From Escherichia phage MIZ6: a stretch of 64,000 nt of DNA. The notes under the pieces are model-generated. The model saw nothing but the letters and a program-made list of their open reading frames with translations, was not told the origin of the DNA and did not search any database. Shown one piece after another: positions 18,806-40,716 of this stretch. The translations under genes and the position numbers were made by a program. The stretch's first letter is position 1, and every line of letters starts with the position of its first letter. The stretch lies in sequence record OR192075.1; one strand, given 5' to 3'.

Positions 18806-19192
18806 TCACTTTGCAAGTCTTATGCGTAGTTGTTCAAGATCATCTGGGTTATCTATTACTGAAAAGTAGATTGATACTATGATTGAGTTATCGTCGTACT
18901 GCGGGGTTACTTCTACTGTCAGGTTTCGGACCCGTGGTTCATAGTTTCGGATCGCCTCATTGATGTTTTTTGATAAGGTATCCACTGTCAGTGGGTTCAT
19001 GTTCTCAAACAGTGATTTATTGAGATCGCATCCAAACAGTGGATCAAATGGACGAGATCCCTTGCGAGTAGTCACGATCAGTAGAATAGAATCCTTAACC
19101 GCTTTAATCCCTATGTTCTTTTTAACGTCGTTATTCCACGATCTGGATATATTGAGATCCAAATCAGTATACATCTGATTAATAGTTGCCAT
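18806..19192 (-). CDS. 25: Baseplate wedge protein gp25
   Basis: TTRKGSRPFDP.FGCDL and FSVIDNPDD blocks match T4 gp25; start moved to ATG 19192. Confidence 0.9.
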   Translation of the reverse strand: MATINQMYTDLDLNISRSWNNDVKKNIGIKAVKDSILLIVTTRKGSRPFDPLFGCDLNKSLFENMNPLTVDTLSKNINEAIRNYEPRVRNLTVEVTPQYDDNSIIVSIYFSVIDNPDDLEQLRIRLAK

Positions 19193-19200
19193 GTTATACC

Positions 19201-19830
19201 TCAAAGAATTTTAAGGAAACTGGATAGACCTGATAATGAATATACACCAGATTCCCCGCATTCGCACTTGATCGGTACTGCCAGCGTGATTTGATTTCTT
19301 GTTAGCTCGTCGATCACTTCTTCCACTTTATCCGTGGTAAGCATATCCAGCACGCGGTCAAAGTCCTGTGCGTTCAGGTCGTCTATATTGAATTGCTGAT
19401 CGCCGATCACGATATATTCGATACATGCAATTACCATCTGCATAATATCAACATCTTCTGTAAACTTAGGTTGACGAAATTTTATTTTTACTTGCCCTAA
19501 GTCCAGAATATACGGTTCAACTTCTGGTATCTGTGTGCGTGAAACATCAAGAGAGTATACTTTCTCTTTATTGCATACACCACACACCCAAGTAGCATCA
19601 ATTTTCATCTTATTGAGGCTGTGACACCATAAGAGAAGAAAAATATATTCTGCTTCGCATTTCTCTAGCTCTAATGCATTGATCCCCGTACATTCATGTA
19701 TGATCTCTATAACAACCTCTGACAGCTTGCCAGTCTCTTTTGCTGCTACCAGTTTTTGAAATTCGCCGAAGGTGAAAGCACGGGCGTGTATCAACTTTTC
19801 GCCTAATTGGATCTTGAAAAAGTATTGCAT
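19201..19830 (-). CDS. 26: Baseplate hub protein gp26 (by synteny)
   Basis: 209-aa ORF upstream of gene 25, divergent from gene 51. Confidence 0.55.
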   Translation of the reverse strand: MQYFFKIQLGEKLIHARAFTFGEFQKLVAAKETGKLSEVVIEIIHECTGINALELEKCEAEYIFLLLWCHSLNKMKIDATWVCGVCNKEKVYSLDVSRTQIPEVEPYILDLGQVKIKFRQPKFTEDVDIMQMVIACIEYIVIGDQQFNIDDLNAQDFDRVLDMLTTDKVEEVIDELTRNQITLAVPIKCECGESGVYSLSGLSSFLKIL

Positions 19831-29465: not shown

Positions 29466-29505
29466 TTTATATCCTCTAGTTGATAACCTATAAACCTATA
29501 TTTAT

Positions 29506-29534
29506 GAAAAAGGGGCTTAACGCCCCCTTTTATT
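29506..29534. terminator. Bidirectional terminator hairpin
   Basis: AAAAA-GGGGC-TTAAC-GCCCC-CTTTTATT. Confidence 0.6.
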
Positions 29535-29745
29535 ATAATGCACCATCGAGTAATTGCTCTAAGGTGTATCCTGAATAGTCTTTTTCAATAAGGGTATATT
29601 TTCCTACTCGTTTAATACAACCGCGCATTTCAACGTATTCTGCGTAGTTGATGGTACGAGTTGTTCCATCTTCCAGTAATGCAGTACCGATTTCGTTAAT
29701 GCGGTCATAAGTTACGTCGGTAATGATGATTTCGATGTTAGCCAT
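29533..29745 (-). CDS. Hypothetical early protein (70 aa)
   Basis: SD GGAGTATCAA before ATG; promoter cassette upstream. Confidence 0.5.
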   Translation of the reverse strand: MANIEIIITDVTYDRINEIGTALLEDGTTRTINYAEYVEMRGCIKRVGKYTLIEKDYSGYTLEQLLDGAL

Positions 29746-29781
29746 TTGATACTCCTTAGTAGTTCGTTTCGGTATGGGTGT

Positions 29782-29810
29782 ATTATGCTATACACCCTCT
29801 GTTATGTCAA
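29782..29810 (-). promoter_or_regulatory. Early promoter cassette (TTGACA-17-CATAAT) with inverted repeat over -10
   Basis: Minus-strand TTGACA; inverted repeat GGGTGTAT/ATACACCC 29776..29797; conserved leader + SD. Confidence 0.55.
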
Positions 29811-29816
29811 CAACTT

Positions 29817-29996
29817 TTAGAACATTTTTGAAATTAATTTTGCTTTGATTTCGCAGAGAACACCTAAAGATTTCTCGTCACCCGCTTTTGCTGCTTCTGA
29901 TTGCATTTTTGAAATGGCTTCAATGTCAGTGCAATTATAAGCCGCTTGAACTTTAGCGATTGCGATGATTGCCGATTCGATGGTTAAGTGTTTCAT
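29817..29996 (-). CDS. Hypothetical early protein (59 aa)
   Basis: ORF just below track cutoff; ATG preceded by GGAGAATCAAAC; promoter cassette upstream. Confidence 0.45.
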   Translation of the reverse strand: MKHLTIESAIIAIAKVQAAYNCTDIEAISKMQSEAAKAGDEKSLGVLCEIKAKLISKMF

Positions 29997-30028
29997 GTTT
30001 GATTCTCCTTTCGTTTCGGTATGTGTGC

Positions 30029-30058
30029 ATTATAGGGGGATCACCGATCCCCTGTCAA
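30029..30058 (-). promoter_or_regulatory. Early promoter cassette (TTGACA-18-TATAAT); spacer is GGGGATC-ACC-GATCCCC palindrome
   Basis: Consensus hexamers; spacer palindrome contains two GATC sites. Confidence 0.6.
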
Positions 30059-30065
30059 CAACTTT

Positions 30066-30584
30066 TTAGTTATTTTTTAATTGCTCATCTTGTAATAGGG
30101 CAATAACATGCTGTCGATGTTCTTCCGATTGAGGCACACCGAAAAAGTTTGTTTTGTAGAAATACTCTAATCGGTCTTCTCGTGTGCTCTCTTCCATCAT
30201 GATCGCGGGTAGTCCGAGATTTCGGAAACGTCGCTTTTCTGCTGGCGTAAAATCACTGTAATACAACATAGAATCATCATTACCAGCAATGCTAAACTCA
30301 TCATTCATAAAGGAGAATATTGCGTTTAAACGCTGTTTACCGTCCACGATTTCGATCTCATAGCGAGAGCCATCATCAATCTTAGCCATTGCGATAGCAC
30401 CAACCGGAAAATCATTAATCAGGTTTTCGATAAACATACGTTTGTTTTCGGTGTCCCATACCAAAGGACGCTGATAATCTGGGTTCATGTTGATATAGCC
30501 ATCTTCTAACCACGCCTCATAAACAGAGATGACAAAGTTTTTAGTATTGGTATAGTAACGGCGTTTAGGCGTTAAACGGTTCAT
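30066..30584 (-). CDS. DUF262 (ParB/Srx-like, GmrS N-domain-like) protein
   Basis: 172 aa from ATG 30584 (SD AGGAG upstream); motifs DYQRP and VDGKQR typical of DUF262. Confidence 0.55.
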   Translation of the reverse strand: MNRLTPKRRYYTNTKNFVISVYEAWLEDGYINMNPDYQRPLVWDTENKRMFIENLINDFPVGAIAMAKIDDGSRYEIEIVDGKQRLNAIFSFMNDEFSIAGNDDSMLYYSDFTPAEKRRFRNLGLPAIMMEESTREDRLEYFYKTNFFGVPQSEEHRQHVIALLQDEQLKNN

Positions 30585-30585
30585 G

Positions 30586-30918
30586 TTATAGTCTCCTGAA
30601 TGGATCATCACGTAAATCAATATCTTTTAAGAACTCATCCCATGAATGGCGGATATTGTTCTTAATTCTCCAGATAAGCGCAGGGATTGAACGCTCTCCC
30701 ATCTGGAAGTAGGGATCATATGATCCGTATGCCCAATATGCTACTACAATTCCACAATCAGCGCAATAGTATTCTATTTCACTTGCTGGCGACCAAATTC
30801 CATCAATATGATCGGTGATCCTGCTTTCGATGTTATGGCTATGGCAATCAGGGCAACGGATGCAATGACCTTGTTTATCGTAATTTGACGTTAGAGAATA
30901 CTTAAACAATCTCATCAT
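30586..30918 (-). CDS. Zn-ribbon protein, possible degenerate HNH-like His-Me finger
   Basis: 110 aa; CIRCPDCHSH ... DHID ... CADCG; stop abuts downstream ATG. Confidence 0.45.
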   Translation of the reverse strand: MMRLFKYSLTSNYDKQGHCIRCPDCHSHNIESRITDHIDGIWSPASEIEYYCADCGIVVAYWAYGSYDPYFQMGERSIPALIWRIKNNIRHSWDEFLKDIDLRDDPFRRL

Positions 30919-31631
30919 AGATCCTTATTGGCTTCAAATACTGCCTTTGCGAATCCTCGCGGGGTAAGTGACCTGATAGTCTTTGTTCTGGTTCCTTTCC
31001 CGCCTAGCTTAGAATGCTGTTTACTGTACCCTTTATTAATCTGCAACGGTTTCTTTTCTGGCATTATAAAGCCTTGTCCGGTCCATAAGCAAGTCTTTTT
31101 CGGGTACATATCACGGGCGGCAATATACTCAGGAAACGTAGGATGTTTATCATCTTCCGGCAAATAACCGCCATATTCCCACGGATGGAACATGTAATCA
31201 GGCTTACGCCACATACTAGAGATAACGCTTACAGGATTCTCTATCATGTAGGGAACTCCTATCCATTCACCCAAATAAGCGGTTATTTTAGCTGCCCGTA
31301 CATCATGAACTTGAATCAATGGTCCTTGTTCTCGTTTCTTTCGTTCAAAGTGCGCAGCGCCACTAACAGCTAAATTGGTGCACGGTGGGAATGCAAATAT
31401 AATATCCGGTTTCCCCCATTCAAGGTCCATTGCTCTTTCCAGCCAGTTCAAATCAATCCAGGTGTTTACATAGGTAATGTTTGGATGTTCAAATCTGGTA
31501 TTATACTTTTTGTATGTACCGTGGTCGGCGTCATCCGCATTAAAGCAGACTACCTTATGACCTGCTTTAGCCCATTCTAGCCCCATTATCCCCGATCCGT
31601 CAAAGTTGCAGAATATTAATTTTTGTTTCAT
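30915..31631 (-). CDS. Minimal C5-cytosine methyltransferase-fold protein
   Basis: 238 aa; FDGSG (motif I-like), FPPCT (motif IV PC-like), ENP (motif VI-like) at DNMT-like spacing; too short for a full TRD. Confidence 0.45.
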   Translation of the reverse strand: MKQKLIFCNFDGSGIMGLEWAKAGHKVVCFNADDADHGTYKKYNTRFEHPNITYVNTWIDLNWLERAMDLEWGKPDIIFAFPPCTNLAVSGAAHFERKKREQGPLIQVHDVRAAKITAYLGEWIGVPYMIENPVSVISSMWRKPDYMFHPWEYGGYLPEDDKHPTFPEYIAARDMYPKKTCLWTGQGFIMPEKKPLQINKGYSKQHSKLGGKGTRTKTIRSLTPRGFAKAVFEANKDL

Positions 31632-31873
31632 ATACGACCCTTTAACCCAGCACAGATTTTAGTCGGTTCTTTACCGTGCCACATTAAGTAAAGTCCGTTA
31701 ATGCGACCTTGTTTTGTGTGTGATTCTTTTCTGATCTTCTTATAGTGTCGTGCTTCCTCAACTGATTGTTTAGAATACCAATCATAAAGGAAGAGGCACA
31801 AAGGCCAACCATTAGCGGCCTTAATGCAGTTATTAAGAAATTCCTTATTGCGTTTAATTAATTTTCTTTTCAC
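31628..31873 (-). CDS. Hypothetical basic protein (81 aa)
   Basis: GTG start overlapping upstream stop (GTGA); GGGGG SD-like upstream. Confidence 0.4.
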   Translation of the reverse strand: MKRKLIKRNKEFLNNCIKAANGWPLCLFLYDWYSKQSVEEARHYKKIRKESHTKQGRINGLYLMWHGKEPTKICAGLKGRI

Positions 31874-32121
31874 GCTGCCCCCATTGGTTTGATAGTAACA
31901 GAATCTAAAAGACCTTTGTTAGCCAGTTCGCGGCAAGTTTTCAGATCCGCAACTTCCCAGCCAGCCGCAATCAGGTTATCAATGAGGCTGTTAGCAACTT
32001 CTTCGCTCATGAAAGAGCACTGTTTGCCTATGGTGTAGCGTACACGCTGTAATTTCAGTTTACGGAAGCCTTTAACGTTCAGGTCTTTAGCGATTTTCTT
32101 TGCGGTTTCGATGTTAGCCAT
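31870..32121 (-). CDS. Hypothetical protein (83 aa), first gene of operon
   Basis: ATG preceded by GGAGAATCAAAC leader. Confidence 0.5.
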   Translation of the reverse strand: MANIETAKKIAKDLNVKGFRKLKLQRVRYTIGKQCSFMSEEVANSLIDNLIAAGWEVADLKTCRELANKGLLDSVTIKPMGAA

Positions 32122-32161
32122 TGTTTGATTCTCCTAAGTGGTATCTCGTCTTGATGGTTGT

Positions 32162-32191
32162 ATTGTAGGGGATCTCCCGATCCCCTGTCAA
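32162..32191 (-). promoter_or_regulatory. Early promoter cassette (TTGACA-18-TACAAT), palindromic GATC spacer
   Basis: Spacer GGGGATC-GGGA-GATCCCC; heads the five-gene operon 30066..32121. Confidence 0.55.
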
Positions 32192-32205
32192 CACTTTTTA
32201 TAAAA

Positions 32206-32373
32206 TTATTTGTTAATTTCTGGTGCGTTGCTCGGATAGTAACCTTCTTTAACACCAAGATATTTTGCAACCATTCCTACAATCTTCTGTGCTACTACAA
32301 TGTCAAATTTCAGATAATCTTCGCCGTGGGTTTCAATGATATATGCTTCACATGCTGCTTTAGTCTCGAACAT
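32206..32373 (-). CDS. Hypothetical small protein (55 aa), paralog of 36524..36691
   Basis: 3' 72 nt identical to 36524..36595; SD GGAGAATCAAA before ATG. Confidence 0.5.
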   Translation of the reverse strand: MFETKAACEAYIIETHGEDYLKFDIVVAQKIVGMVAKYLGVKEGYYPSNAPEINK

Positions 32374-32407
32374 TTTGATTCTCCTATTTCGTTTCGTTAT
32401 GTGTGTA

Positions 32408-32436
32408 TTATAGGGGATCTCCCGATCCCCGTCAAC
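32408..32436 (-). promoter_or_regulatory. Early promoter cassette (TTGACG-17-TATAAT), palindromic GATC spacer
   Basis: Spacer GGGATCGGGAGATCCCC. Confidence 0.55.
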
Positions 32437-32448
32437 AACTTTTTAAAA

Positions 32449-32922
32449 TTATTTGCACCAAATTCGAATGATTTCGTCTCGTTCAAATTTTTGCCAGATT
32501 ACTCGGTCGCCCGCTGCCATAATACTGACAAATCCAGTTATATTTCCGGTGTACTTGCTTTTAGTTTCTGCATCATATTCAAAGAATGGAGCTTTAAGAT
32601 CGCTAAACTCATCTTTTCCCACAAACTTCATAACATGACGGTGTGCGTAATATTCGCTTCTTAGTGTTGTTGTGATAGTTCCGTCATCATTTGATTTCAG
32701 ATGCAATTCGGCATCTTCATAAAGACTTGCATCTCGTTGTTTACTTTCGATACCATCATTATATGTTGATTTGGTTGCACTCCAACATTGATATGTCTTA
32801 TCTACATTTTCGATCTTTTCCTGTGTCATGTCAAAAAGCGGCGCAACCTTTTTCTTAGCCGCGTGCGCAACGTTGGTCATAGACAGTGCCGCAACAACCG
32901 CAATAGCAATAATTTTCTTCAT
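32449..32922 (-). CDS. Predicted secreted/periplasmic protein
   Basis: 157 aa; N-terminal signal peptide MKKIIAIAVVAALSMTNVAHA followed by AKKK. Confidence 0.55.
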   Translation of the reverse strand: MKKIIAIAVVAALSMTNVAHAAKKKVAPLFDMTQEKIENVDKTYQCWSATKSTYNDGIESKQRDASLYEDAELHLKSNDDGTITTTLRSEYYAHRHVMKFVGKDEFSDLKAPFFEYDAETKSKYTGNITGFVSIMAAGDRVIWQKFERDEIIRIWCK

Positions 32923-32983
32923 AATATCATCTCCTTTGGTTTATATGGCGGGAGTATCTTAGCAATACTCCCTTAATACTATA

Positions 32984-33265
32984 TTATTCGTGATTAGTTT
33001 CGATGTTGTGCATTTTGCACCAGTTCAGCCAATCGCCCAGATCTTGATAGTTGATGCTTTTATCTGCTGCCATCGTTTTTGTCTTGATACCCATATGTGC
33101 GTTATGAGTAAGCATTTTTACAGTGAACTCAATTTTATCGCCTTTAGCTTTAACATCAACCAGTTTGGTCCACTGGCTACCAGCGCCGCGAATGTTCATG
33201 CCAACGATGTTTCCGATGTATGCTTCTTTGTTTTTCAGGATTTCGGTTGCTTTGATGAATTTCAT
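32984..33265 (-). CDS. Hypothetical early protein (93 aa)
   Basis: Conserved leader and promoter cassette upstream. Confidence 0.5.
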   Translation of the reverse strand: MKFIKATEILKNKEAYIGNIVGMNIRGAGSQWTKLVDVKAKGDKIEFTVKMLTHNAHMGIKTKTMAADKSINYQDLGDWLNWCKMHNIETNHE

Positions 33266-33298
33266 TTTTGATTCTCCAGTTCGTTTCGGTATGGGTGT

Positions 33299-33327
33299 AT
33301 TATGCTATGTTCTTACTTTGGTGTCAA
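33299..33327 (-). promoter_or_regulatory. Early promoter cassette (TTGACA-17-CATAAT)
   Basis: Minus-strand hexamers; A-tract upstream of -35. Confidence 0.55.
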
Positions 33328-33335
33328 CAACTTTT

Positions 33336-33605
33336 TTAGATATTTTCAGAAATAAATTTTAAAACTTGACGTAAATGTTTCTCATCTTTGATAGTCGCCG
33401 GAAGTTCTTCTTTTACTTCCTGTGCAAGATAGATATTTCCGTTCCAAGTGAAAGATCCGTCTTCGTTTACGCGATAGCTGAACATCCACTCGCAATCATT
33501 TTCGATTTCATATACACACAGAAGGGTGTAATCGTTAAAGCTATTGATTTCAAGGTCGAAGCCGTGACGTTTTGCAAAGTTGGTAGTGGTTTTAGTCAGT
33601 GCCAT
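33336..33605 (-). CDS. Hypothetical early protein (89 aa)
   Basis: Conserved leader GGAGAATCAAACA before ATG. Confidence 0.5.
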   Translation of the reverse strand: MALTKTTTNFAKRHGFDLEINSFNDYTLLCVYEIENDCEWMFSYRVNEDGSFTWNGNIYLAQEVKEELPATIKDEKHLRQVLKFISENI

Positions 33606-33645
33606 TGTTTGATTCTCCTAAGTGGTATCTCGTTTCGATGGGTGT

Positions 33646-33674
33646 ATTATGCTATACACAGGATCTGGTGTCAA
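33646..33674 (-). promoter_or_regulatory. Early promoter cassette (TTGACA-17-CATAAT)
   Basis: Minus-strand hexamers; partial inverted repeat over -10. Confidence 0.55.
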
Positions 33675-33696
33675 CAACTTTTTTAAAAAATAGGCA

Positions 33697-33722
33697 ATAA
33701 AAAAGCCGACACTATGGTCGGC
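33697..33722 (-). terminator. Rho-independent terminator
   Basis: GCCGAC-ACTATG-GTCGGC with A-run on plus strand. Confidence 0.65.
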
Positions 33723-33727
33723 ACATT

Positions 33728-33982
33728 TTAAAAATTCTTGCTATATATGCAAGCCTCATAATCTAGAGGATGACCGCCAATCCTACCAGGCTTAATATTC
33801 CAACCGCATCGATATTTGCTGACCATGCTAACCGTTTCGGTTCTTAGAGCATTTCTTTGCAAATCATACCCCCTAAATTCTTGTCTATAAGGACAGTCCG
33901 CTTTGCAAGTTGGCGGTTCTACGTCATTTAGCGGGTCAGAAGCAGTTGGCTTTATTATCAATTCTTTGTTTGCAATAATCAT
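33728..33982 (-). CDS. Hypothetical protein (start uncertain)
   Basis: Track ORF 33728..34045 overlaps upstream gene; internal ATG at 33982 chosen; Cys-containing. Confidence 0.3.
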   Translation of the reverse strand: MIIANKELIIKPTASDPLNDVEPPTCKADCPYRQEFRGYDLQRNALRTETVSMVSKYRCGWNIKPGRIGGHPLDYEACIYSKNF

Positions 33983-34115
33983 AAGCACATCCCATTGAAG
34001 GCAATTTAACATCTTCGCAATAAGTGTTGAATCCGTCAAATACAATCACTTCGTATTTGACTCCATCGGCGATAGCTTTTACTTTATACCATCCATGCTT
34101 GTATAAAATCTTCAT
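33936..34115 (-). CDS. Hypothetical small protein (59 aa)
   Basis: ATG at 34115 preceded by GAGGGAAATAAAG; track ORF extends with TTG start. Confidence 0.45.
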   Translation of the reverse strand: MKILYKHGWYKVKAIADGVKYEVIVFDGFNTYCEDVKLPSMGCAYDYCKQRIDNKANCF

Positions 34116-34148
34116 CTTTATTTCCCTCAATCTCGTTTCGATTGGTGT

Positions 34149-34177
34149 ATTATGCTATAGGCGTGAACTGGTGTCAA
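34149..34177 (-). promoter_or_regulatory. Early promoter cassette (TTGACA-17-CATAAT)
   Basis: Minus-strand hexamers. Confidence 0.55.
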
Positions 34178-34202
34178 TGCCTTTTTTTAAAATTTTATGC
34201 AA

Positions 34203-34227
34203 TAAAAAAGCCGACACTAAGGTCGGC
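34203..34227 (-). terminator. Rho-independent terminator
   Basis: GCCGAC-ACTAAG-GTCGGC with A-run on plus strand. Confidence 0.65.
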
Positions 34228-34235
34228 TAATAAAA

Positions 34236-34544
34236 TCATTTAGACAAATAATCATTCTGTGCAATCCGGTCGGCGTATGCTGGTGTTATGTCAATCGCCA
34301 GCACTTTAACGCGTGCTTTCTTGCGACCTGGGTTTTCTCGTAACCAGTGCTCATGACCGTGAACATTTTTATACTTTGATGCTGTTTCGAAAGTACGGAT
34401 CGGACCTGGGTAATCAGCGTAAAGGATCTCTAGATCTTCGGTGATGTAAAAATATACATCGTAATTGCTGTTCTCTAGCTTAAGCAGAGACTTTCGGAAC
34501 ATTGGGAGATTTTCGCGGGTAAATTCAAAGATATTATCTTTCAT
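34236..34544 (-). CDS. HxHW-motif small protein family, member 1
   Basis: 102 aa; YDVYFYITEDLEI ... HGHEHWL ... VKVLAIDI. Confidence 0.5.
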   Translation of the reverse strand: MKDNIFEFTRENLPMFRKSLLKLENSNYDVYFYITEDLEILYADYPGPIRTFETASKYKNVHGHEHWLRENPGRKKARVKVLAIDITPAYADRIAQNDYLSK

Positions 34545-34567
34545 AGTATTATCCTCAATAGTTGGAT

Positions 34568-34588
34568 GAAAAGGGGCGTTAACGCCCC
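34568..34588 (-). terminator. Terminator-like hairpin
   Basis: GGGGCG-TTAA-CGCCCC with flanking A/T runs. Confidence 0.5.
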
Positions 34589-34594
34589 CATATA

Positions 34595-34882
34595 TTAAAA
34601 CAGTCCTTCCTGTACACCGTAGTAGAGTTCGTCGCTGATAATTTCATTAATGCGACGGTGTGCATATTCCTGATTTGCGAAGTTGTCAGCAAGTTCTACT
34701 TTAGTTTCGCCGTCATGAGTCCATTTAGTGATAACTTTACCATCTGCAAATTTGAAGTTGAACTCTTTAGCTACTGCATCGCGTACCAGACGTGCAAACT
34801 TATTGTTGCGGATTGCATTGTCGGTTTCGTGTGCAGCGTGAGCAAATTTGTTAACTTTCAGAGTGATAGTGATGTATGCCAT
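34595..34882 (-). CDS. Hypothetical early protein (95 aa)
   Basis: Leader GGAGAATCAAATT before ATG. Confidence 0.5.
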   Translation of the reverse strand: MAYITITLKVNKFAHAAHETDNAIRNNKFARLVRDAVAKEFNFKFADGKVITKWTHDGETKVELADNFANQEYAHRRINEIISDELYYGVQEGLF

Positions 34883-34928
34883 AATTTGATTCTCCTAGTT
34901 AGAAAGTGTATCTCGTTTCGATGGGTGT

Positions 34929-34957
34929 ATTATGCTATACACCCGATCCGTTGTCAA
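34929..34957 (-). promoter_or_regulatory. Early promoter cassette (TTGACA-17-CATAAT) with inverted repeat GGGTGTAT/ATACACCC
   Basis: Perfect 8-bp inverted repeat 34923..34944 overlapping -10. Confidence 0.55.
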
Positions 34958-34963
34958 CACTTT

Positions 34964-35242
34964 TTATAAAATAATTTTTTGATATTTTTCTATGATGTTT
35001 GTGTAGGTCACATCAACCGCTAGCACCGTTGCTTCGAATCCACCGTTTAGCCAATGGCTATGGTCATGATCGTGAAAGAAACCAAGACCAGTACGAAGAC
35101 CTTCTTTATATTCGGCGCGTACATTTAGATCATCATCGATAAACAGATAAAACCATGAATTTTTACTAGGATTGATGATACAACCTTTCAGATTAGGGAG
35201 AATATCACGACTAAGAATAAACTTATCACCTACTTTTAGCAT
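34964..35242 (-). CDS. HxHW-motif family, member 2
   Basis: From ATG 35242 (SD GTGAGGAAA); FYLFIDDDLNV ... HDHDHSHWL ... VLAVDV. Confidence 0.5.
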   Translation of the reverse strand: MLKVGDKFILSRDILPNLKGCIINPSKNSWFYLFIDDDLNVRAEYKEGLRTGLGFFHDHDHSHWLNGGFEATVLAVDVTYTNIIEKYQKIIL

Positions 35243-35256
35243 AATATTTTCCTCAC

Positions 35257-35565
35257 TTATAAAGTTTGACCGTTGTTTTTCGCGTAATGCTGAATGCGTG
35301 CTTGATCTGCTTCCGCTGGTGATAGATTCCATGCGATCACTACAACTTCTGACGCATCATGATCATTATCACTTACCCAATGATTATGATTCATACAATT
35401 GTTTGCTATCGCGTGAGAAAATGATCTCATTACCGGAGACGTATAATCATAGTAACGGATTTTCAGATTTTCATCAACGTACAAGTAGATCGTATACGGC
35501 TTATATTCAGTAACCAGTAACAGACAGTTACGCAATTCTGGGAAAATCTTTTTAGTTAATTTCAT
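35257..35565 (-). CDS. HxHW-motif family, member 3
   Basis: From ATG 35565 (SD CGAGGATTA); IYLYVDENLKI ... NHNHW ... VVVIAW. Confidence 0.45.
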   Translation of the reverse strand: MKLTKKIFPELRNCLLLVTEYKPYTIYLYVDENLKIRYYDYTSPVMRSFSHAIANNCMNHNHWVSDNDHDASEVVVIAWNLSPAEADQARIQHYAKNNGQTL

Positions 35566-35566
35566 T

Positions 35567-35785
35567 TTATAATCCTCGGTCGCGGCTATAGTACACGGTA
35601 CGCCATACAATTTCATGTTTCGTGTCGCTCCAGCACACGATCTCATTTACTCTTAAATCTTTGTTATCAACAAAAGATGAACATTGTGACGCTTCTTTCA
35701 TCATTTTATCTGCTGTTTTCTCATCAAATACAGCACAGATTTCTTTATACACTCGATAATCTTTGAATTGACTCTGGATACCCAT
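35567..35785 (-). CDS. Hypothetical small protein, paralog of 35745..36002
   Basis: Shared FK.Y..Y ... KMM.EAS.C.SF motif with neighbour; 41-nt out-of-frame overlap. Confidence 0.4.
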   Translation of the reverse strand: MGIQSQFKDYRVYKEICAVFDEKTADKMMKEASQCSSFVDNKDLRVNEIVCWSDTKHEIVWRTVYYSRDRGL

Positions 35786-36002
35786 AATTAACACCATTCC
35801 AACCAATTGTTTTTGAGAAAACGTTTATCCACTGTTGAGTGTAGCATGTTTCTTTCCATGATACAATACGAGTAGAATAATGGTTTTTGTTTCCAGAAAA
35901 GGACGGGCATTTTGATGCATCTTCCATCATCTTTTCGGCGAACTCTGGTGCGTATACTCGCAGGATCTGTTGATATGCTTTGTATTCTTTAAATTTGCTC
36001 AT
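35745..36002 (-). CDS. Hypothetical small protein, paralog of 35567..35785
   Basis: MSKFKEYKAY ... EKMMEDASKCPSF. Confidence 0.4.
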   Translation of the reverse strand: MSKFKEYKAYQQILRVYAPEFAEKMMEDASKCPSFSGNKNHYSTRIVSWKETCYTQQWINVFSKTIGWNGVNYGYPESIQRLSSV

Positions 36003-36267
36003 AATCATTCACTACCTTATCAGCTTCTTTTGTTGTTTTTACATCAACTGCGATAACTCGTAAAGGTTCGTCATGGTTCCACCAGTGGTCATGAATATCA
36101 GCTTGTGATTTATCACCAAAGGAATCACGAATATCATTTTTACATTTATAGCTAATGTGACCTTCATAGTCAACATAAAGGTAATTATCGAAAATCGGCG
36201 TTTTTAAGATCATACCGAAAAATCTTTCTTTGTGTGTCTTATCCAGCGTTGCAGTAATTCGCATCAT
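35989..36267 (-). CDS. HxHW-motif family, member 4
   Basis: NYLYVDYEGHI ... IHDHWW ... VIAVDV; SD AGAGGAATA. Confidence 0.5.
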   Translation of the reverse strand: MMRITATLDKTHKERFFGMILKTPIFDNYLYVDYEGHISYKCKNDIRDSFGDKSQADIHDHWWNHDEPLRVIAVDVKTTKEADKVVNDYEQI

Positions 36268-36279
36268 AATATATTCCTC

Positions 36280-36459
36280 TTAGAAAGGGATGGTCATTTC
36301 TTGAGCTTGTACGTTCTCGTTAGGATTAAACTTCATCCAGCCGATATTGTCTACCAGCATATGCACATTTTTATCATATCCTACGTGGGTAGTCAATACT
36401 GTATGTGCTTTACCTTCAATGATGAGTTCCATGTACTTCTGAACTTCGATAGCTTTCAT
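36280..36459 (-). CDS. Hypothetical small protein (59 aa)
   Basis: ATG preceded by GGAGAATCAAA; promoter cassette upstream. Confidence 0.45.
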   Translation of the reverse strand: MKAIEVQKYMELIIEGKAHTVLTTHVGYDKNVHMLVDNIGWMKFNPNENVQAQEMTIPF

Positions 36460-36491
36460 TTTGATTCTCCGTTTGTTGTCTTGATGGGAGT

Positions 36492-36520
36492 ATCTTACTA
36501 CTCCCTTTAATCATTGTCAA
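36492..36520 (-). promoter_or_regulatory. Early promoter cassette (TTGACA-17-TAAGAT) with inverted repeat GGGAGTA/TACTCCC
   Basis: Minus-strand hexamers; heads the run 36459 down to 34964. Confidence 0.5.
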
Positions 36521-36523
36521 CTA

Positions 36524-36691
36524 TTATTTGTTAATTTCTGGTGCGTTGCTCGGATAGTAACCTTCTTTAACACCAAGATATTTTGCAACCATTCCGGTGA
36601 TCTTCTGTGCTACTACGATATCGAATTTCAGGTAGTCTTCACCGTGGTTTGCTACAATGTATGCTTCGCATTCTGCTTTAGTCTGGAACAT
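36524..36691 (-). CDS. Hypothetical small protein (55 aa), paralog of 32206..32373
   Basis: 3' 72 nt identical to 32206..32277. Confidence 0.5.
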   Translation of the reverse strand: MFQTKAECEAYIVANHGEDYLKFDIVVAQKITGMVAKYLGVKEGYYPSNAPEINK

Positions 36692-36723
36692 TTTTGATTC
36701 TCCTATCTCGTTGGTATGTGTGC

Positions 36724-36752
36724 ATTATAGGGGATCACCGATCCCCTGTCAA
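36724..36752 (-). promoter_or_regulatory. Early promoter cassette (TTGACA-17-TATAAT), palindromic GATC spacer
   Basis: Spacer GGGGATCACCGATCCCC. Confidence 0.6.
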
Positions 36753-36757
36753 CAACT

Positions 36758-37051
36758 TTATAATGCTTTATATGCGTATTTCATAAATTTGTCTGCCACT
36801 TCATTGGCATGTTCAGATTCTACGCCTGATTCGAGAACAATAGCTAGGTCGGTTTCGTCATTCCCGCCGTACCAATGATTTGATGTTCGATTTTTTTCAA
36901 TTGGAAATTGGTCACTTTTATCTGTGCGACAAAATACATCTAAATGCTCGTCGATGTAAAAGATCCAATCTTCATAAAGAATAACGGTATTAGCCAGATT
37001 TTTATTGCCTTCAACGAAAGGTTCGGCTACAAACAAATTAGTATGTTCCAT
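36758..37051 (-). CDS. HxHW-motif family, member 5 (divergent)
   Basis: From ATG 37051; ILYEDWIFYIDEHLDV ... SNHWYGG ... LAIVLESG. Confidence 0.4.
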   Translation of the reverse strand: MEHTNLFVAEPFVEGNKNLANTVILYEDWIFYIDEHLDVFCRTDKSDQFPIEKNRTSNHWYGGNDETDLAIVLESGVESEHANEVADKFMKYAYKAL

Positions 37052-37067
37052 AGTATTTTCCTCAAAA

Positions 37068-37259
37068 TTATACAGCTTCGTAAACTTCCCAATGTCCAAC
37101 ACCAGCACGCTTAACGAAAAGGTTTTCTTTTATGTTATTCATAAACGTCTGGATGGATTTAATGCGGTTTGAAGGTTTCCATTCTTCGTTGGTATTGCGT
37201 CGATACATCATAACATTACCAGTTCGCTTATATTCAGCAACCATTTTAAGACCACACAT
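37068..37259 (-). CDS. Hypothetical small protein (63 aa)
   Basis: SD TTGAGGATAA before ATG. Confidence 0.45.
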   Translation of the reverse strand: MCGLKMVAEYKRTGNVMMYRRNTNEEWKPSNRIKSIQTFMNNIKENLFVKRAGVGHWEVYEAV

Positions 37260-37315
37260 AATATTATCCTCAATTTGTGGGAGAGTATTACCCTCCCGAT
37301 TATTGTTATACTACA

Positions 37316-37618
37316 TTACGCAAAATGGCGTGTCAATGCTTCTTTTGCTGTTCCGCTAAGATTCTCGATCTCTCCTGGCATAACATCAACCGCAAGAACT
37401 TCTACAACATCCTCTGATCCTAACCAGTGAGTATGACCTTTGTAGAACTTGATATCCCATTTATCGCTATCGCTAGCCCACCACACATCACCGTCGATAA
37501 AGTTGATGTAAAGCACACTACGCCACATTGAATTAATTACTTTCAATACTGCGCCTTTCATCTCTTCCACGGTGTGGTCTTCCATTTTGAAGACCTCACC
37601 TACCTGAACTTTTGCCAT
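37316..37618 (-). CDS. HxHW-motif family, member 6
   Basis: LYINFIDGDVW ... GHTHWLG ... VLAVDV; SD AGAGGTGA. Confidence 0.5.
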   Translation of the reverse strand: MAKVQVGEVFKMEDHTVEEMKGAVLKVINSMWRSVLYINFIDGDVWWASDSDKWDIKFYKGHTHWLGSEDVVEVLAVDVMPGEIENLSGTAKEALTRHFA

Positions 37619-37635
37619 TTAGTCACCTCTCTTTA

Positions 37636-37815
37636 TTACATAACAATCACGCCAGCCGTTGAAAGTTGATGTTTCAACTGAGCATTTTCTGCTACCGTCA
37701 AATCAATGATTTCTTGTGACGCTGCAATCATATAGCCATTGGTGATATTGTTTTGCATCAGTTCAATGGTTTCTTCGTTGTAGCGGATTTTAGCGATGAT
37801 TTCGTTGAAGTTCAT
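37636..37815 (-). CDS. Hypothetical small protein (59 aa)
   Basis: ATG 37815 preceded by GGAGAATCAATT; track ORF extends with TTG start. Confidence 0.45.
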   Translation of the reverse strand: MNFNEIIAKIRYNEETIELMQNNITNGYMIAASQEIIDLTVAENAQLKHQLSTAGVIVM

Positions 37816-37849
37816 AATTGATTCTCCTAGTTCGTTTCGGTATGTGTGT

Positions 37850-37878
37850 AGTATAGGGGATCGGTGATCCCCTGTCAA
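37850..37878 (-). promoter_or_regulatory. Early promoter cassette (TTGACA-17-TATACT), palindromic GATC spacer
   Basis: Spacer GGGGATCACCGATCCCC on minus strand. Confidence 0.55.
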
Positions 37879-37886
37879 CAACTTTT

Positions 37887-38198
37887 TTAAAGTTTTTCCA
37901 TGATAACGGTCATAATTACATCTTCTGCGCGAGCGGTCAGATTATCAGCGTCAGCATGTGGGCGGCTGGTTGTTACAGAGATAACACCGTTGCGCACTGG
38001 TTTGATGTTGATATCAAGATGATCCGCGAAACGTTCGCCAGTTACAGAATGAATTTTGGTGTTAAATTCTTTTGCCAGTGCCTTGCGAACTTCACGAATC
38101 AGGGTAGCGTTTTTCAGTTGGTTCTCCGCGCTCATGGTCTTCTGGGTGTTCATGGTTCCGTCGAAGTCAATCATTGGCAGCGTTACGATGTATTTCAT
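37887..38198 (-). CDS. Hypothetical early protein (103 aa)
   Basis: ATG 38198 preceded by GGAGAATCAAAA. Confidence 0.5.
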   Translation of the reverse strand: MKYIVTLPMIDFDGTMNTQKTMSAENQLKNATLIREVRKALAKEFNTKIHSVTGERFADHLDINIKPVRNGVISVTTSRPHADADNLTARAEDVIMTVIMEKL

Positions 38199-38243
38199 TT
38201 TTGATTCTCCGTTTAAGAAAGTGTGTTTCGTTTTGATGTGTGT

Positions 38244-38272
38244 AGTATAGGGGATCACCGATCCCCTGTCAA
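38244..38272 (-). promoter_or_regulatory. Early promoter cassette (TTGACA-17-TATACT), palindromic GATC spacer
   Basis: Spacer GGGGATCGGTGATCCCC. Confidence 0.55.
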
Positions 38273-38284
38273 CAACTTTTTGAA

Positions 38285-38761
38285 TTATTTTTCTTGATGC
38301 TCGCGATCGTACTTTTCGAAATAAAATTCTACTGGCTGGTCGTGGATTGACAGCAAGCCAAAGCGTTTAGCCGCTCGCAATCCCATATTGCGCTGAATGT
38401 ACTTCTGGAAGTTCTCGCGTATACACTTACGCCAGTATTCTAAGCCCATACAGCTTTTATAAAGATTGCATTGCACACACGCCGGATTCATGTTATAAAG
38501 TATATCATGCTCCGGTTTATGCATTCCTACAACCTTATATTTCCATGATCCATCATCATTACGGGCAATTCGTCCATTTTCATCATAGACTACCTTTGAG
38601 CGTCGCAATACTGGTTTGATGTGGTCTGCGTGCCAGCGATCCCCTAGTTCCTCGCCACAATAGGCACAACGTCCACCATATTTCATTTTCAGGATCTGGC
38701 GTTGCTCTTTCTTTGACAATTTTTTAGGTTTAGGGGCTTTCGCCCCTTCATTATCACACAT
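38285..38761 (-). CDS. HNH endonuclease (free-standing, homing-endonuclease-like)
   Basis: CAYCG ... HADHIKP ... N ... CVQCN ... K motif; overlaps ligase stop by 8 nt. Confidence 0.7.
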   Translation of the reverse strand: MCDNEGAKAPKPKKLSKKEQRQILKMKYGGRCAYCGEELGDRWHADHIKPVLRRSKVVYDENGRIARNDDGSWKYKVVGMHKPEHDILYNMNPACVQCNLYKSCMGLEYWRKCIRENFQKYIQRNMGLRAAKRFGLLSIHDQPVEFYFEKYDREHQEK

Positions 38762-40250
38762 CGAATACCTCTTTTACTGTATTTGCAGTGGTCTTGTCGT
38801 AGCGAATACGTTTGATGATTGGGAGAAATAAAGAGAACTCCGGTTCATCTTCTTTACGTGATTTGCTGCGGATATACCCGTTGCATGTCATCTCAATAAC
38901 TTTTCCAATCAGGTTATGACGGTCAGCCCATAACATTTCTCGGTCGAGTTCATTTCGACGATCGAACGGAATTACACGTTCAGTACCATCATCACCTTTT
39001 TCGGTTGTAGTGTCGGTTAATCCCGATCCGGTGTTAGTCATCATTCGTCCGCACGCACTACGGACAGTAAAACCGCCTACCTTATTGGGGTCTTTACTAT
39101 GCGGATATACATCAACAATTTCCGCGTCGAAGTCAATCACTTCTTTAAATTTAACCTGATCTTTACTACGGCGATCTTCAAATACACCATGTAAATTTTT
39201 AAGGATAATACCTTCTAAGCCCATGTTGACATAACGATGATATACTTCGCGAGCTTCATCGATATTGTTAACTACAGTGTTTTCGATGATCTGAACACGA
39301 GGATCGTTAAGTTCTTCAACAATCTGTTTTAGTTCTTCGAATCGATCTTTATATTGCTTCGTTGCTTTCTCGTTTCCGTAATACACATCACGGTCGATAA
39401 CATCCCAGACAGTGTAAACAATACATTGGGCTTCTTCTTTTGGAATAGTTCCTTTAAGTGATTTGTTGAGGATACCATTTCCGGTCTGACGATCTGCAAC
39501 AACGGATTCTTTCACTGCTTCCGCTACTGGCGTTAATGGCATTTCCTCTTCTTCAAATATCCATGACAGAGTACCATCATAAACGCTTTCAACGAAGTTC
39601 TGCGCTGGTGTTTGCGAAAGGGTAGGCATATATACCAATTCGCCATCTAGAACAATTCCACGGCCTCGTAGACGCTCTAAAACCGCAAACAAATCATCAA
39701 GCCCTTGATAGGTATTACCTGAGCGGGTATAGATTGCTAATGTTTCCCCGTCAATATCAGCCATACCACGAGCGCCATCGCTTTTAAGTTGTGCATACGC
39801 CGGATACTTGATATTAGCAATAGTCTTATCAGAACATGACGATGCAAGGTGGCACGGCTGCTGGGGGATCAGTTTCTTCCATACCTTGTTTGCAGTAGTA
39901 GCGGAACAACCACATTCCAGATCACGATTCAGGACCATCATTGCAACTTTAGCATCATCTTCTGACAAGCAAGTCAGAGTATCGGTAACTAGCTGTAATG
40001 CTGCATTACCAGTTACTTGACGCGTGGCAAGTTTATTTTTAAAGACCTGTAATGCACCGGATAAAGACAATACAGACGAATAGCGAGACGGTTTATCGTA
40101 TTTCTTTACGCCAAACGTAACCTGTTTGCAATATGCCAGATAAAAGCATTCTTTCAGCGTTTCATTGCTCGCGGATTCTTTCAGAATCTTTTCTTTCAGC
40201 GATGTTTTGTCTGTTGCTGCAAGCTGATTAATGATATTAAGAATTGACAT
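38754..40250 (-). CDS. 30: ATP-dependent DNA ligase gp30
   Basis: Start moved to ATG 40250 (SD GAGGTG); catalytic lysine motif KSDGAR; resembles T4 DNA ligase along whole length. Confidence 0.95.
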   Translation of the reverse strand: MSILNIINQLAATDKTSLKEKILKESASNETLKECFYLAYCKQVTFGVKKYDKPSRYSSVLSLSGALQVFKNKLATRQVTGNAALQLVTDTLTCLSEDDAKVAMMVLNRDLECGCSATTANKVWKKLIPQQPCHLASSCSDKTIANIKYPAYAQLKSDGARGMADIDGETLAIYTRSGNTYQGLDDLFAVLERLRGRGIVLDGELVYMPTLSQTPAQNFVESVYDGTLSWIFEEEEMPLTPVAEAVKESVVADRQTGNGILNKSLKGTIPKEEAQCIVYTVWDVIDRDVYYGNEKATKQYKDRFEELKQIVEELNDPRVQIIENTVVNNIDEAREVYHRYVNMGLEGIILKNLHGVFEDRRSKDQVKFKEVIDFDAEIVDVYPHSKDPNKVGGFTVRSACGRMMTNTGSGLTDTTTEKGDDGTERVIPFDRRNELDREMLWADRHNLIGKVIEMTCNGYIRSKSRKEDEPEFSLFLPIIKRIRYDKTTANTVKEVFDV

Positions 40251-40716
40251 TTTCACCTCGTTTTGTTAAACGTTCACGAATATCATTGAGGATACTACAA
40301 AATTCCGATTCAGTCAATATAGTCTTTAACGGATCAGTTCCACCTATGCTATGACGTAATTTCTTATTTCCGGTAGAGAGTAATGCTTTACAAAATTCTG
40401 GGTTATTCCGTGCCATCGTAACAAATGCCAGATGTACCAGTCTGTAATAATGCTCACTCATTCGATGAATCGGGCGACCCTGAAAATATAACATGTGATT
40501 CTCAATCTTTTCAGTTCTTCCGGTTCTTTTTGCTTTGCCACCGTGCATCAAAAAGATTTCTCTTTGTCTCTGAGGGTTCTTAAATCTTAGCCCCTGTAAA
40601 AATCCTTCTGTGCTGTTAATATCGCAACCAAATAGACGGAATGGTCTTTTATTGAAATTACTCAATTCACCCGATGGATAAGGTCCACCCGCATAGATAT
40701 CAATTTCAGAAGTCAT
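40237..40716 (-). CDS. NADAR-like (YbiA/DUF1768-like) domain protein
   Basis: 159 aa; IDIYAGGPYPSGELSNF ... FRLFG ... STEGFLQGLRF resembles NADAR N-terminal signature. Confidence 0.5.
   Translation of the reverse strand: MTSEIDIYAGGPYPSGELSNFNKRPFRLFGCDINSTEGFLQGLRFKNPQRQREIFLMHGGKAKRTGRTEKIENHMLYFQGRPIHRMSEHYYRLVHLAFVTMARNNPEFCKALLSTGNKKLRHSIGGTDPLKTILTESEFCSILNDIRERLTKRGENVNS

Follow-up and report, generated by a model that had tools for sequence, protein, structure and literature searches.

Six paralogous small proteins with an invariant His-Trp site in the PeSL-rich region of Krischvirus genomes

Introduction

Early ORFans number in the hundreds in T4-type phages, and the characterised ones include several proteins of host takeover or anti-defence. 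The closest described counterparts of the genes reported here are the ORFan cassettes of phages RB49 and phi1, which are flanked by PeSLs, early promoters whose spacer holds a stem-loop (Arbiol et al. 2010, PMC2839356; Comeau et al. 2014, PMC4122927). In this work we analyse a 64,000-nt stretch of Escherichia phage MIZ6 (OR192075.1; hereafter the window) and describe six genes between positions 34236 and 37618, here called p1 to p6, whose products share an HxHW motif followed by a hydrophobic strand. They belong to the same genus and genome region as the published cassettes and also lie in PeSL-bounded operons; ORFan192 and ORF210, the minicircle genes of those papers, are found at 32449..32922 and 37887..38198 of the window, a few genes away. 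Unlike the published PeSL ORFans, which those papers treat as unrelated open reading frames (ORFs), the six are paralogs and show no insertion/deletion polymorphism among the genomes we examined.

Positions 33000-39000 of the window matched 58 phage records by megablast, the best of them being MIZ2 and MIZ3, which align over 100% of the query with 99.3% identity; RB49 reaches 95.5%. All 12 records examined for this region are classified as Krischvirus, within the Straboviridae. The MIZ2 record, whose coordinates are identical to those of the window, annotates each of the six ORFs as a minus-strand coding sequence for a 'hypothetical protein', at exactly the coordinates given below; in phi1 and RB49, p1 to p6 are named ORF197, ORF199, ORF200, ORF203, ORF206 and ORF208. 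Neither these ORFs nor any paralogy is mentioned in the PeSL papers (PMC2839356, PMC4122927) or the five-genome comparison, and our search of the literature on RB49 ORFans and paralogs found nothing on the six genes. Previous knowledge thus consists of their deposition in GenBank as hypothetical proteins and their partial clustering in PHROGs, whereas the recognition of a six-member superfamily, its invariant His-Trp site and its apparently unprecedented fold are new.

Results

Six proteins form one paralogous family

An original prediction, made by a model from the sequence alone, proposed that the six ORFs encode paralogs, and profile searches firmly establish that p1 to p6 are one family. 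Each member in turn was left out of a five-member hidden Markov model (HMM), which then searched the window's full set of 585 stop-to-stop ORFs (40 aa or longer) with filters off. Each time the top non-member was the omitted protein, at E-values from 5.1e-5 to 3.4e-11, with the background at 0.016 or worse. Pairwise phmmer links, with E-values computed for a 300-protein genome, also bear the family out: p1 and p3 are the closest paralogs (E 2e-13) and p2 reaches p1, p3, p4 and p6 at E 1e-5 to 2e-4, while p5 is joined by profile only. In a MAFFT alignment the six proteins are 17-30% identical, with invariant H, W and V columns. The ORF at 18806..19204 (E 0.016) was considered as a seventh member and discarded as a chance match; by eye it is a gp25-like baseplate protein, though no profile search was made on it.

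PHROGs splits the family in five. Each window protein matches one family of unknown function at E 1e-48 to 1e-64, with p1 and p3 sharing 9345 and the others falling into 17255, 15972, 15965 and 16486. Family 9345 is weakly reached by p2 (E 1.5e-5) and p4 (E 3e-3), and not by p5 or p6. Because these links are weak or missing, the leave-one-out profiles were needed to unite all six.

All members are encoded on the minus strand. The 102-aa p1 (34236..34544; phrog_9345, E 1.5e-48) carries the motif HGHEHW ... VLAIDI behind a GAGGA Shine-Dalgarno sequence and was recovered by the leave-one-out profile at E 1e-10; its gene is bracketed by two terminator-like hairpins. Its sister p3 (35257..35565, 102 aa; phrog_9345) has NHNHW ... 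VIAWNL and the best leave-one-out score, E 3.4e-11. Between them lies p2 (34964..35242, 92 aa; phrog_17255), with HDHDHSHW ... VLAVDV and E 4.6e-7. The remaining three are p4 (35989..36267, 92 aa; phrog_15972), with IHDHWW ... VIAVDV (E 5.8e-8); p5 (36758..37051, 97 aa; phrog_15965), with TSNHW ... VLESGV (E 5.1e-5); and p6 (37316..37618, 100 aa; phrog_16486), with GHTHW ... VLAVDV (E 2.1e-7). A GAGG-type Shine-Dalgarno sequence stands 6-9 nt 5′ of the chosen ATG in all six genes, and its placement supports the shorter starts of the original prediction over the longer mechanical ORFs for 34964..35242, 35257..35565 and 36758..37051. The proteins have isoelectric points (pI) of 4.5-7.9 and lack a signal peptide, a hydrophobic span and a conserved Cys. 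Given this pI range, a strongly acidic DNA mimic was rejected for the family as a whole.

One His and one Trp are invariant

We surveyed the motif in 102 representative sequences comprising the window's six, their orthologs and divergent relatives. In p2 numbering, the second His (position 63) and the Trp (64) of HxHW are invariant throughout, and the first His (61) is present in 98 of the 102, being replaced by Ser in the lineage of the window's p5 and by Asp in one relative. Position 34, in the YLYID strand, is always aromatic (Tyr in 94, Phe in 8). The acidic positions are less constant, with Asp, Asn or Thr at 36 and Asp, Asn or Gly at 77.

These counts refine the motif as first proposed. 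HxHW is present in five of the six window copies, p5 having S-N-H-W instead. The hydrophobic-Ala-Val-Asp strand is present, but its consensus is better written V-L/I-A-x-D/N/G-V than (V/L)AVDV, and the C-terminal His cluster, evident in p2 (HDHDHSHW) and p1 (HGHEHW), is confined to those two copies. p5 of the MIZ2/RB49 lineage has lost two conserved residues, the first His of HxHW to Ser and the strand Asp to Gly. Most p5 orthologs read THNHW ... SDV, and across sequences the two changes do not always go together.

The proposal that the family binds metal fares less well. The survey found no set of three or more conserved metal-ligand residues (His, Asp, Glu or Cys) among the 102 sequences: H63 is the sole invariant His, the candidate Asp ligands at 36 and 77 vary, and no Cys is conserved. 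A metal site may nonetheless be shared between subunits.

The His-rich strings of p2 (H-D-H-D-H-S-H-W) and p1 (H-G-H-E-H-W) resemble the histidine triad of HIT proteins (H-phi-H-phi-H-phi-phi). Unlike in HIT proteins, however, polar residues separate the His residues and the motif is placed in a loop and helix instead of a beta-strand; no copy other than p1 and p2 has the additional His. With the triad limited to two copies, no Pfam HIT match and no HIT structure among the fold matches, we rejected membership of that superfamily. A papain-like or C39 cysteine peptidase was likewise rejected, as the Cys-His dyad is not conserved and p1 and p6 lack Cys altogether.

A confidently predicted fold without detectable relatives

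AlphaFold2 modelled p2, from a 28-sequence alignment, as a compact domain with a mean predicted local distance difference test score (pLDDT) of 91.6 and a predicted template modelling score (pTM) of 0.86. The model comprises beta7-9, alpha12-18, beta21-24, beta31-35, beta41-45, alpha54-57, alpha62-67, beta70-75 and alpha83-91, with HxHW at the start of the third helix. A Foldseek search of BFVD with this model returned only the family's own Krischvirus paralogs, at template modelling scores (TM) of 0.60-0.73 and 19-24% identity. Since these paralog models superpose on that of p2, the fold is confirmed as common to the paralogs.

Outside the family, the best Foldseek match in the PDB had an E-value of 1.0, and the family profile, run against PDB sequences at E≤10, gave a single de novo design (E 0.26). 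Pfam searches with single members, and with 20 members at E≤10, returned nothing consistent; NCBIfam gave noise only, and the PADLOC anti-phage defence profiles nothing above noise. The first reading had assigned the proteins to no known family by eye, and the searches of Pfam, PHROGs with function, NCBIfam, PADLOC, and PDB sequences and folds agree with it. The six are predicted to be cytoplasmic, single-domain alpha/beta proteins with a confident compact fold, and by every test run the family lacks detectable relatives.

Three further candidates were set aside. One divergent member matched Pfam T4_Y03C weakly (E 0.1), which we judged to be chance; dda.1 corresponds to Pfam Y01A, and no match to the family HMM came from T4 at 5-25 kb. 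A KOW or Spt5-NusG-like domain gave no KOW match at E≤1-10, its VGD segment occurs only in p2 and p6, and the sole hint was the source label of one relative, P0074. For the Tad2/DUF2829 anti-Thoeris sponge, which we considered alongside AcrIIA7 and the Tas1 immunity protein among small anti-defence and toxin-immunity proteins, neither sequence nor fold indicated membership.

Six genes retained in order and diverged under purifying selection

We compared the locus with ten further Krischvirus genomes (GEC-3S, RB49, phi1, MIZ4, G37-3, FL15, FL38, UPWr_E1, Skers and JK32). All ten carry the six family genes in the same order, while the neighbouring ORFs 32449..32922, 33728..34115 and 37887..38198 are patchy. 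Presence/absence polymorphism of the kind expected of mobile PeSL cassettes was not found for any family gene in these genomes; variation takes the form of allele replacement.

The six family genes, together with two phrog_8471 genes that lie among them, diverge far more than the rest of the region. Relative to the window copy, amino acid identity is 97-99% for p2, the most conserved copy, 92-99% for p3, 88-100% for p1, 81-98% for p6, 69-96% for p5 and 57-100% for p4, compared with 97-100% for most neighbouring genes. p4 falls into two allele classes about 57% identical, with a maximum synonymous divergence (dS) of 2.7, and the allele classes of p4, p5 and a phrog_8471 gene occur in different combinations in different phages.

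This divergence is not matched by signs of adaptive change. By the Nei-Gojobori method, mean dS is 0.11-0.89 in the family and 0.05-0.11 in neighbouring genes; in the family it rises together with nonsynonymous divergence (dN), leaving dN/dS at 0.10-0.24. Within ortholog groups, variability is highest in the loop at 46-60 and in the N-terminus and lowest in beta3, HxHW and beta5; p6 orthologs also differ by an indel of 6-10 residues in the loop preceding the motif, as judged from the alignment. The same loop and N-terminus vary strongly between paralog groups, around a core of beta3 (YLYID), HxHW and beta5 (VLAxDV). Positive selection was not found in the variable loop, the 15 codons before the motif having a dN/dS of at most 0.21. 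The description of the family as rapidly diversifying therefore holds in that these are the most divergent local genes, but not in the sense of positive selection. Raised dS alongside dN, low dN/dS and six copies in fixed order are the signature of old paralogs and alleles shuffled by recombination under purifying selection, and not of fast adaptive change in individual lineages.

Distribution is restricted to RB49-like phages

Searched with the family profile, 5.8 billion clustered proteins yielded 90 clusters, all of which are orthologs of one or other of p1 to p6 at 54% identity or more; the long contigs bearing them are about 165-176 kb. HMMER, run exhaustively over 1.84 billion representatives clustered at 50% identity, gave only 20 matches at E<1e-3, with no T4 relatives among them. 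On these searches, confinement of the family to RB49-like (Krischvirus) phages is firmly established.

Thirteen divergent new sequences (P0091-P0103) came from 1.2-2.1 kb Logan contigs of three related runs (SRR8048112, SRR8048117 and SRR8048118), and single-protein scans of IMG/VR for divergent members gave no match. All thirteen retain the pattern hhYhD...HxHW...hhAxxV...(E)AD. Because the genes adjoining them are distant homologs of the window's neighbouring genes, they suggest a sister lineage of Krischvirus. On one contig, L003, four family genes with five domains between them follow the relative order of the window, and one of these genes encodes P0091 (203 aa), a tandem fusion of two family domains. 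On another, L004, a 260-aa ORF (318-1097) joins two phrog_8471 domains in frame with a p3-like (phrog_9345) domain.

PeSL promoters define three multi-gene units

That the family is interleaved with unrelated small genes and promoter cassettes is confirmed by the annotation and by repeat and promoter scans. The minus strand of 29761-38298 contains eleven PeSL copies, each consisting of TTGACA, a 17-nt perfectly palindromic spacer in one of two variants (GGGGATCnnnGATCCCC or GGGTGTAT), TATAAT, and a conserved leader with a Shine-Dalgarno sequence, ending in GGAGAATCAA-ATG; one copy is at 36716-36778. The promoter scan matched these copies to the sigma70 consensus at 11-12 of 12 positions. PeSLs at about 34128, 34908, 36692, 37818 and 38212 delimit three multi-gene units, which hold one, three and two family genes.

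The largest unit is headed by the PeSL at 36692..36778 (minus strand), which belongs to repeat families D1, D2 and D3 and contains a 12/12 sigma70 early promoter at 36752->36724. The operon behind it (36691..34964) reads 55-aa gene, 59-aa gene, p4, the two phrog_8471 genes, p3 and p2, and its genes overlap or abut from p4 to p2. The PeSL at 37818..37904 (minus strand; 11/12 match, 37878->37850) heads the operon 37815..36758, made up of a 59-aa gene, p6, a 63-aa gene and p5. The third unit begins at the PeSL at 34908..34983 (minus strand, promoter from 34957), followed by the phrog_7474 gene at 34882..34595, a hairpin, p1 and a terminator (34228..34209). This terminator hairpin and the next PeSL (34128..34228, minus strand; repeats D1 and D11) mark the downstream boundary of the array.

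The hairpin at 34566-34600 is GC-rich with a T-run (GGGGCGTTAACGCCCC TTTT on the minus strand), stands immediately 5′ of the p1 ribosome-binding site, and has a near-identical counterpart at 29504-29538. As p1 has no promoter of its own, its expression would depend on read-through. The late promoter consensus TATAAATA was not found between 20 and 41 kb, and we infer early expression of the family genes as the natural reading of the PeSL promoters and the absence of late ones.

Neighbouring genes

The two phrog_8471 genes (35567..35797 and 35745..36008, minus strand) are themselves paralogs (phmmer E 1e-13), packed between p4 and p3 in one operon. They overlap by 53 nt in the window, where the upstream copy is extended relative to other Krischviruses, and the downstream copy occurs in two allele classes that are 61% identical.

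Two further pairs accompany the PeSLs. The 55-aa genes at 32206-32373 and 36524-36691 (phrog_8009), each directly behind a PeSL, share 89% DNA identity over 172 nt; unlike the ancient HxHW paralogs, this pair reflects a recent event, either duplication or gene conversion. The genes at 34595-34882 and 37887-38198 (95 and 103 aa, both phrog_7474) are paralogs that each come first after a PeSL; the latter is RB49/phi1 ORF210, shown to form PeSL minicircles, and is missing from three of the ten compared genomes. RB49 ORFan192 (32449-32922, 157 aa) has a signal-peptide-like N-terminus, MKKIIAIAVVAALSMTNVAHA, and is likely an accessory protein that is exported or periplasmic; FL38 is the only one of the ten other genomes to carry it. 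A Cys-rich cassette of two overlapping genes (84 and 59 aa; 33728-34115) is present in four of the ten, and its 84-aa gene has the region's highest dN/dS, 0.62.

The array is flanked on one side by the gene for an Alt-like ADP-ribosyltransferase (27414-29465) and on the other by genes for an HNH endonuclease and DNA ligase, gene 30 (38285-40256). The HNH endonuclease gene (38285-38761) shares 8 nt with the 3′ end of gene 30 and sits where the conserved core gives way to the hyperplastic region. Towards alt, positions 30066-31586 hold a 172-aa gene (annotated 'DUF262' in phage W115), then a 109-aa Cys/His-rich gene and, downstream of both, a DNA methyltransferase gene (30915-31586). All three are candidates for a phage DNA-protection or anti-restriction toolkit.

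Discussion

We tentatively favour the interpretation that p1 to p6 are target-specific binding or inhibitor modules acting in host takeover or counter-defence, roles that the original prediction also suggested and that the genomic context is consistent with. Six ancient Krischvirus-specific paralogs of 92-102 aa, transcribed early from sigma70-type PeSL promoters in the hyperplastic region between alt and gene 30, would in this scheme supply stoichiometric binders or inhibitors of host components. Differences in the N-terminus and in the loop before the motif, both of them variable, would give each paralog a separate target or target variant, while the invariant aromatic...His-Trp core would serve as a shared structural core or as a common docking or ligand site. 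Binding modules are favoured because the proteins are small, single-domain and presumably early, because no enzyme family or complete catalytic or metal-ligand set is recognised in them, and because a constant core is bordered by variable segments; that six old copies are each conserved suggests as many specificities, not a single activity. A further reason is that cytosine in RB49 DNA is unmodified (PMC4041780), so that RB49-type phages must rely on protein-based countermeasures. Oligomeric action is probable under this scheme, possibly together with the co-operonic phrog_8471 proteins, as hinted at by the fusions and the tight operon packing.

Several observations weigh against this interpretation. 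It is reached through genomic context and the exclusion of enzyme families, and no arms race is evident from dN/dS within ortholog groups. Retention of all copies in a fixed order would suit a housekeeping or core early phage function equally well. Each fusion was found once, on a short metagenomic contig, and a search for further fusions of two phrog_8471 domains with a family domain gave no match, not even a close relative, so that we give it no weight. The AlphaFold model of the P0091 tandem fusion is poor (pLDDT 60) and lends no structural support to oligomers. Finally, an invariant His-Trp beside another nearly invariant His could equally mark a catalytic or ligand site.

In the main rival, an improbable one in our judgement and a concrete form of the original metal-binding proposal, the proteins are small enzymes or ligand sponges. 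The His pair of HxHW, aided by Asp/Asn of beta3 and beta5 or by the His pair of a second subunit, would bind metal or phosphate and the Trp would stack on a base, so that a nucleotide-derived molecule such as an immune signal is hydrolysed or sequestered. The variability of the first His and of both acidic positions sits poorly with such a site. Less probable again are nucleic-acid-binding, or RNA-polymerase- or ribosome-binding, regulators with an SH3/KOW-like barrel that redirect transcription or translation of the host at an early stage of infection; the acidic-to-neutral charge of the proteins and the lack of a KOW profile match tell against such a binder. That the six are functionless, effectively neutral ORFan cargo of mobile PeSL cassettes, hitch-hiking by recombination, is hardly credible: the region is indeed hyperplastic and PeSL-rich, with ORFs gained and lost between close relatives (PMC2839356), but all six genes are in every examined genome while the indel ORFans 32449..32922, 33728..34115 and 37887..38198 come and go, dN/dS is low, and the motifs stay invariant across copies only 17-30% identical that share a confidently predicted fold.

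A more specific form of the binding-module interpretation is conceivable, though we consider it unlikely. The six genes would be a fixed panel of inhibitors with a previously unseen fold, each neutralising a separate immune effector or abortive-infection toxin of the host, in the manner of bacterial orphan immunity gene arrays and perhaps as hetero-oligomers with the phrog_8471 proteins. If true, such a panel would give the cytosine-unmodified Krischviruses a broad host range.

The family is a new one within a well-known kind, the early accessory ORFans of T4-type hyperplastic regions, and is not in itself surprising; were its members ordinary structural or regulatory accessories, it would be of local interest only. 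It is distinct among the region's ORFans in its six-fold paralogy, complete retention, confidently predicted orphan fold and invariant His-Trp site, which is open to mutation. Phage therapy cocktails make use of Krischviruses, whose DNA is unmodified (PMC2839356, PMC4041780); the way they cope with host defences is therefore a practical question, and the six genes offer a compact, well-defined target set for deletion and expression and for anti-defence and takeover screens.

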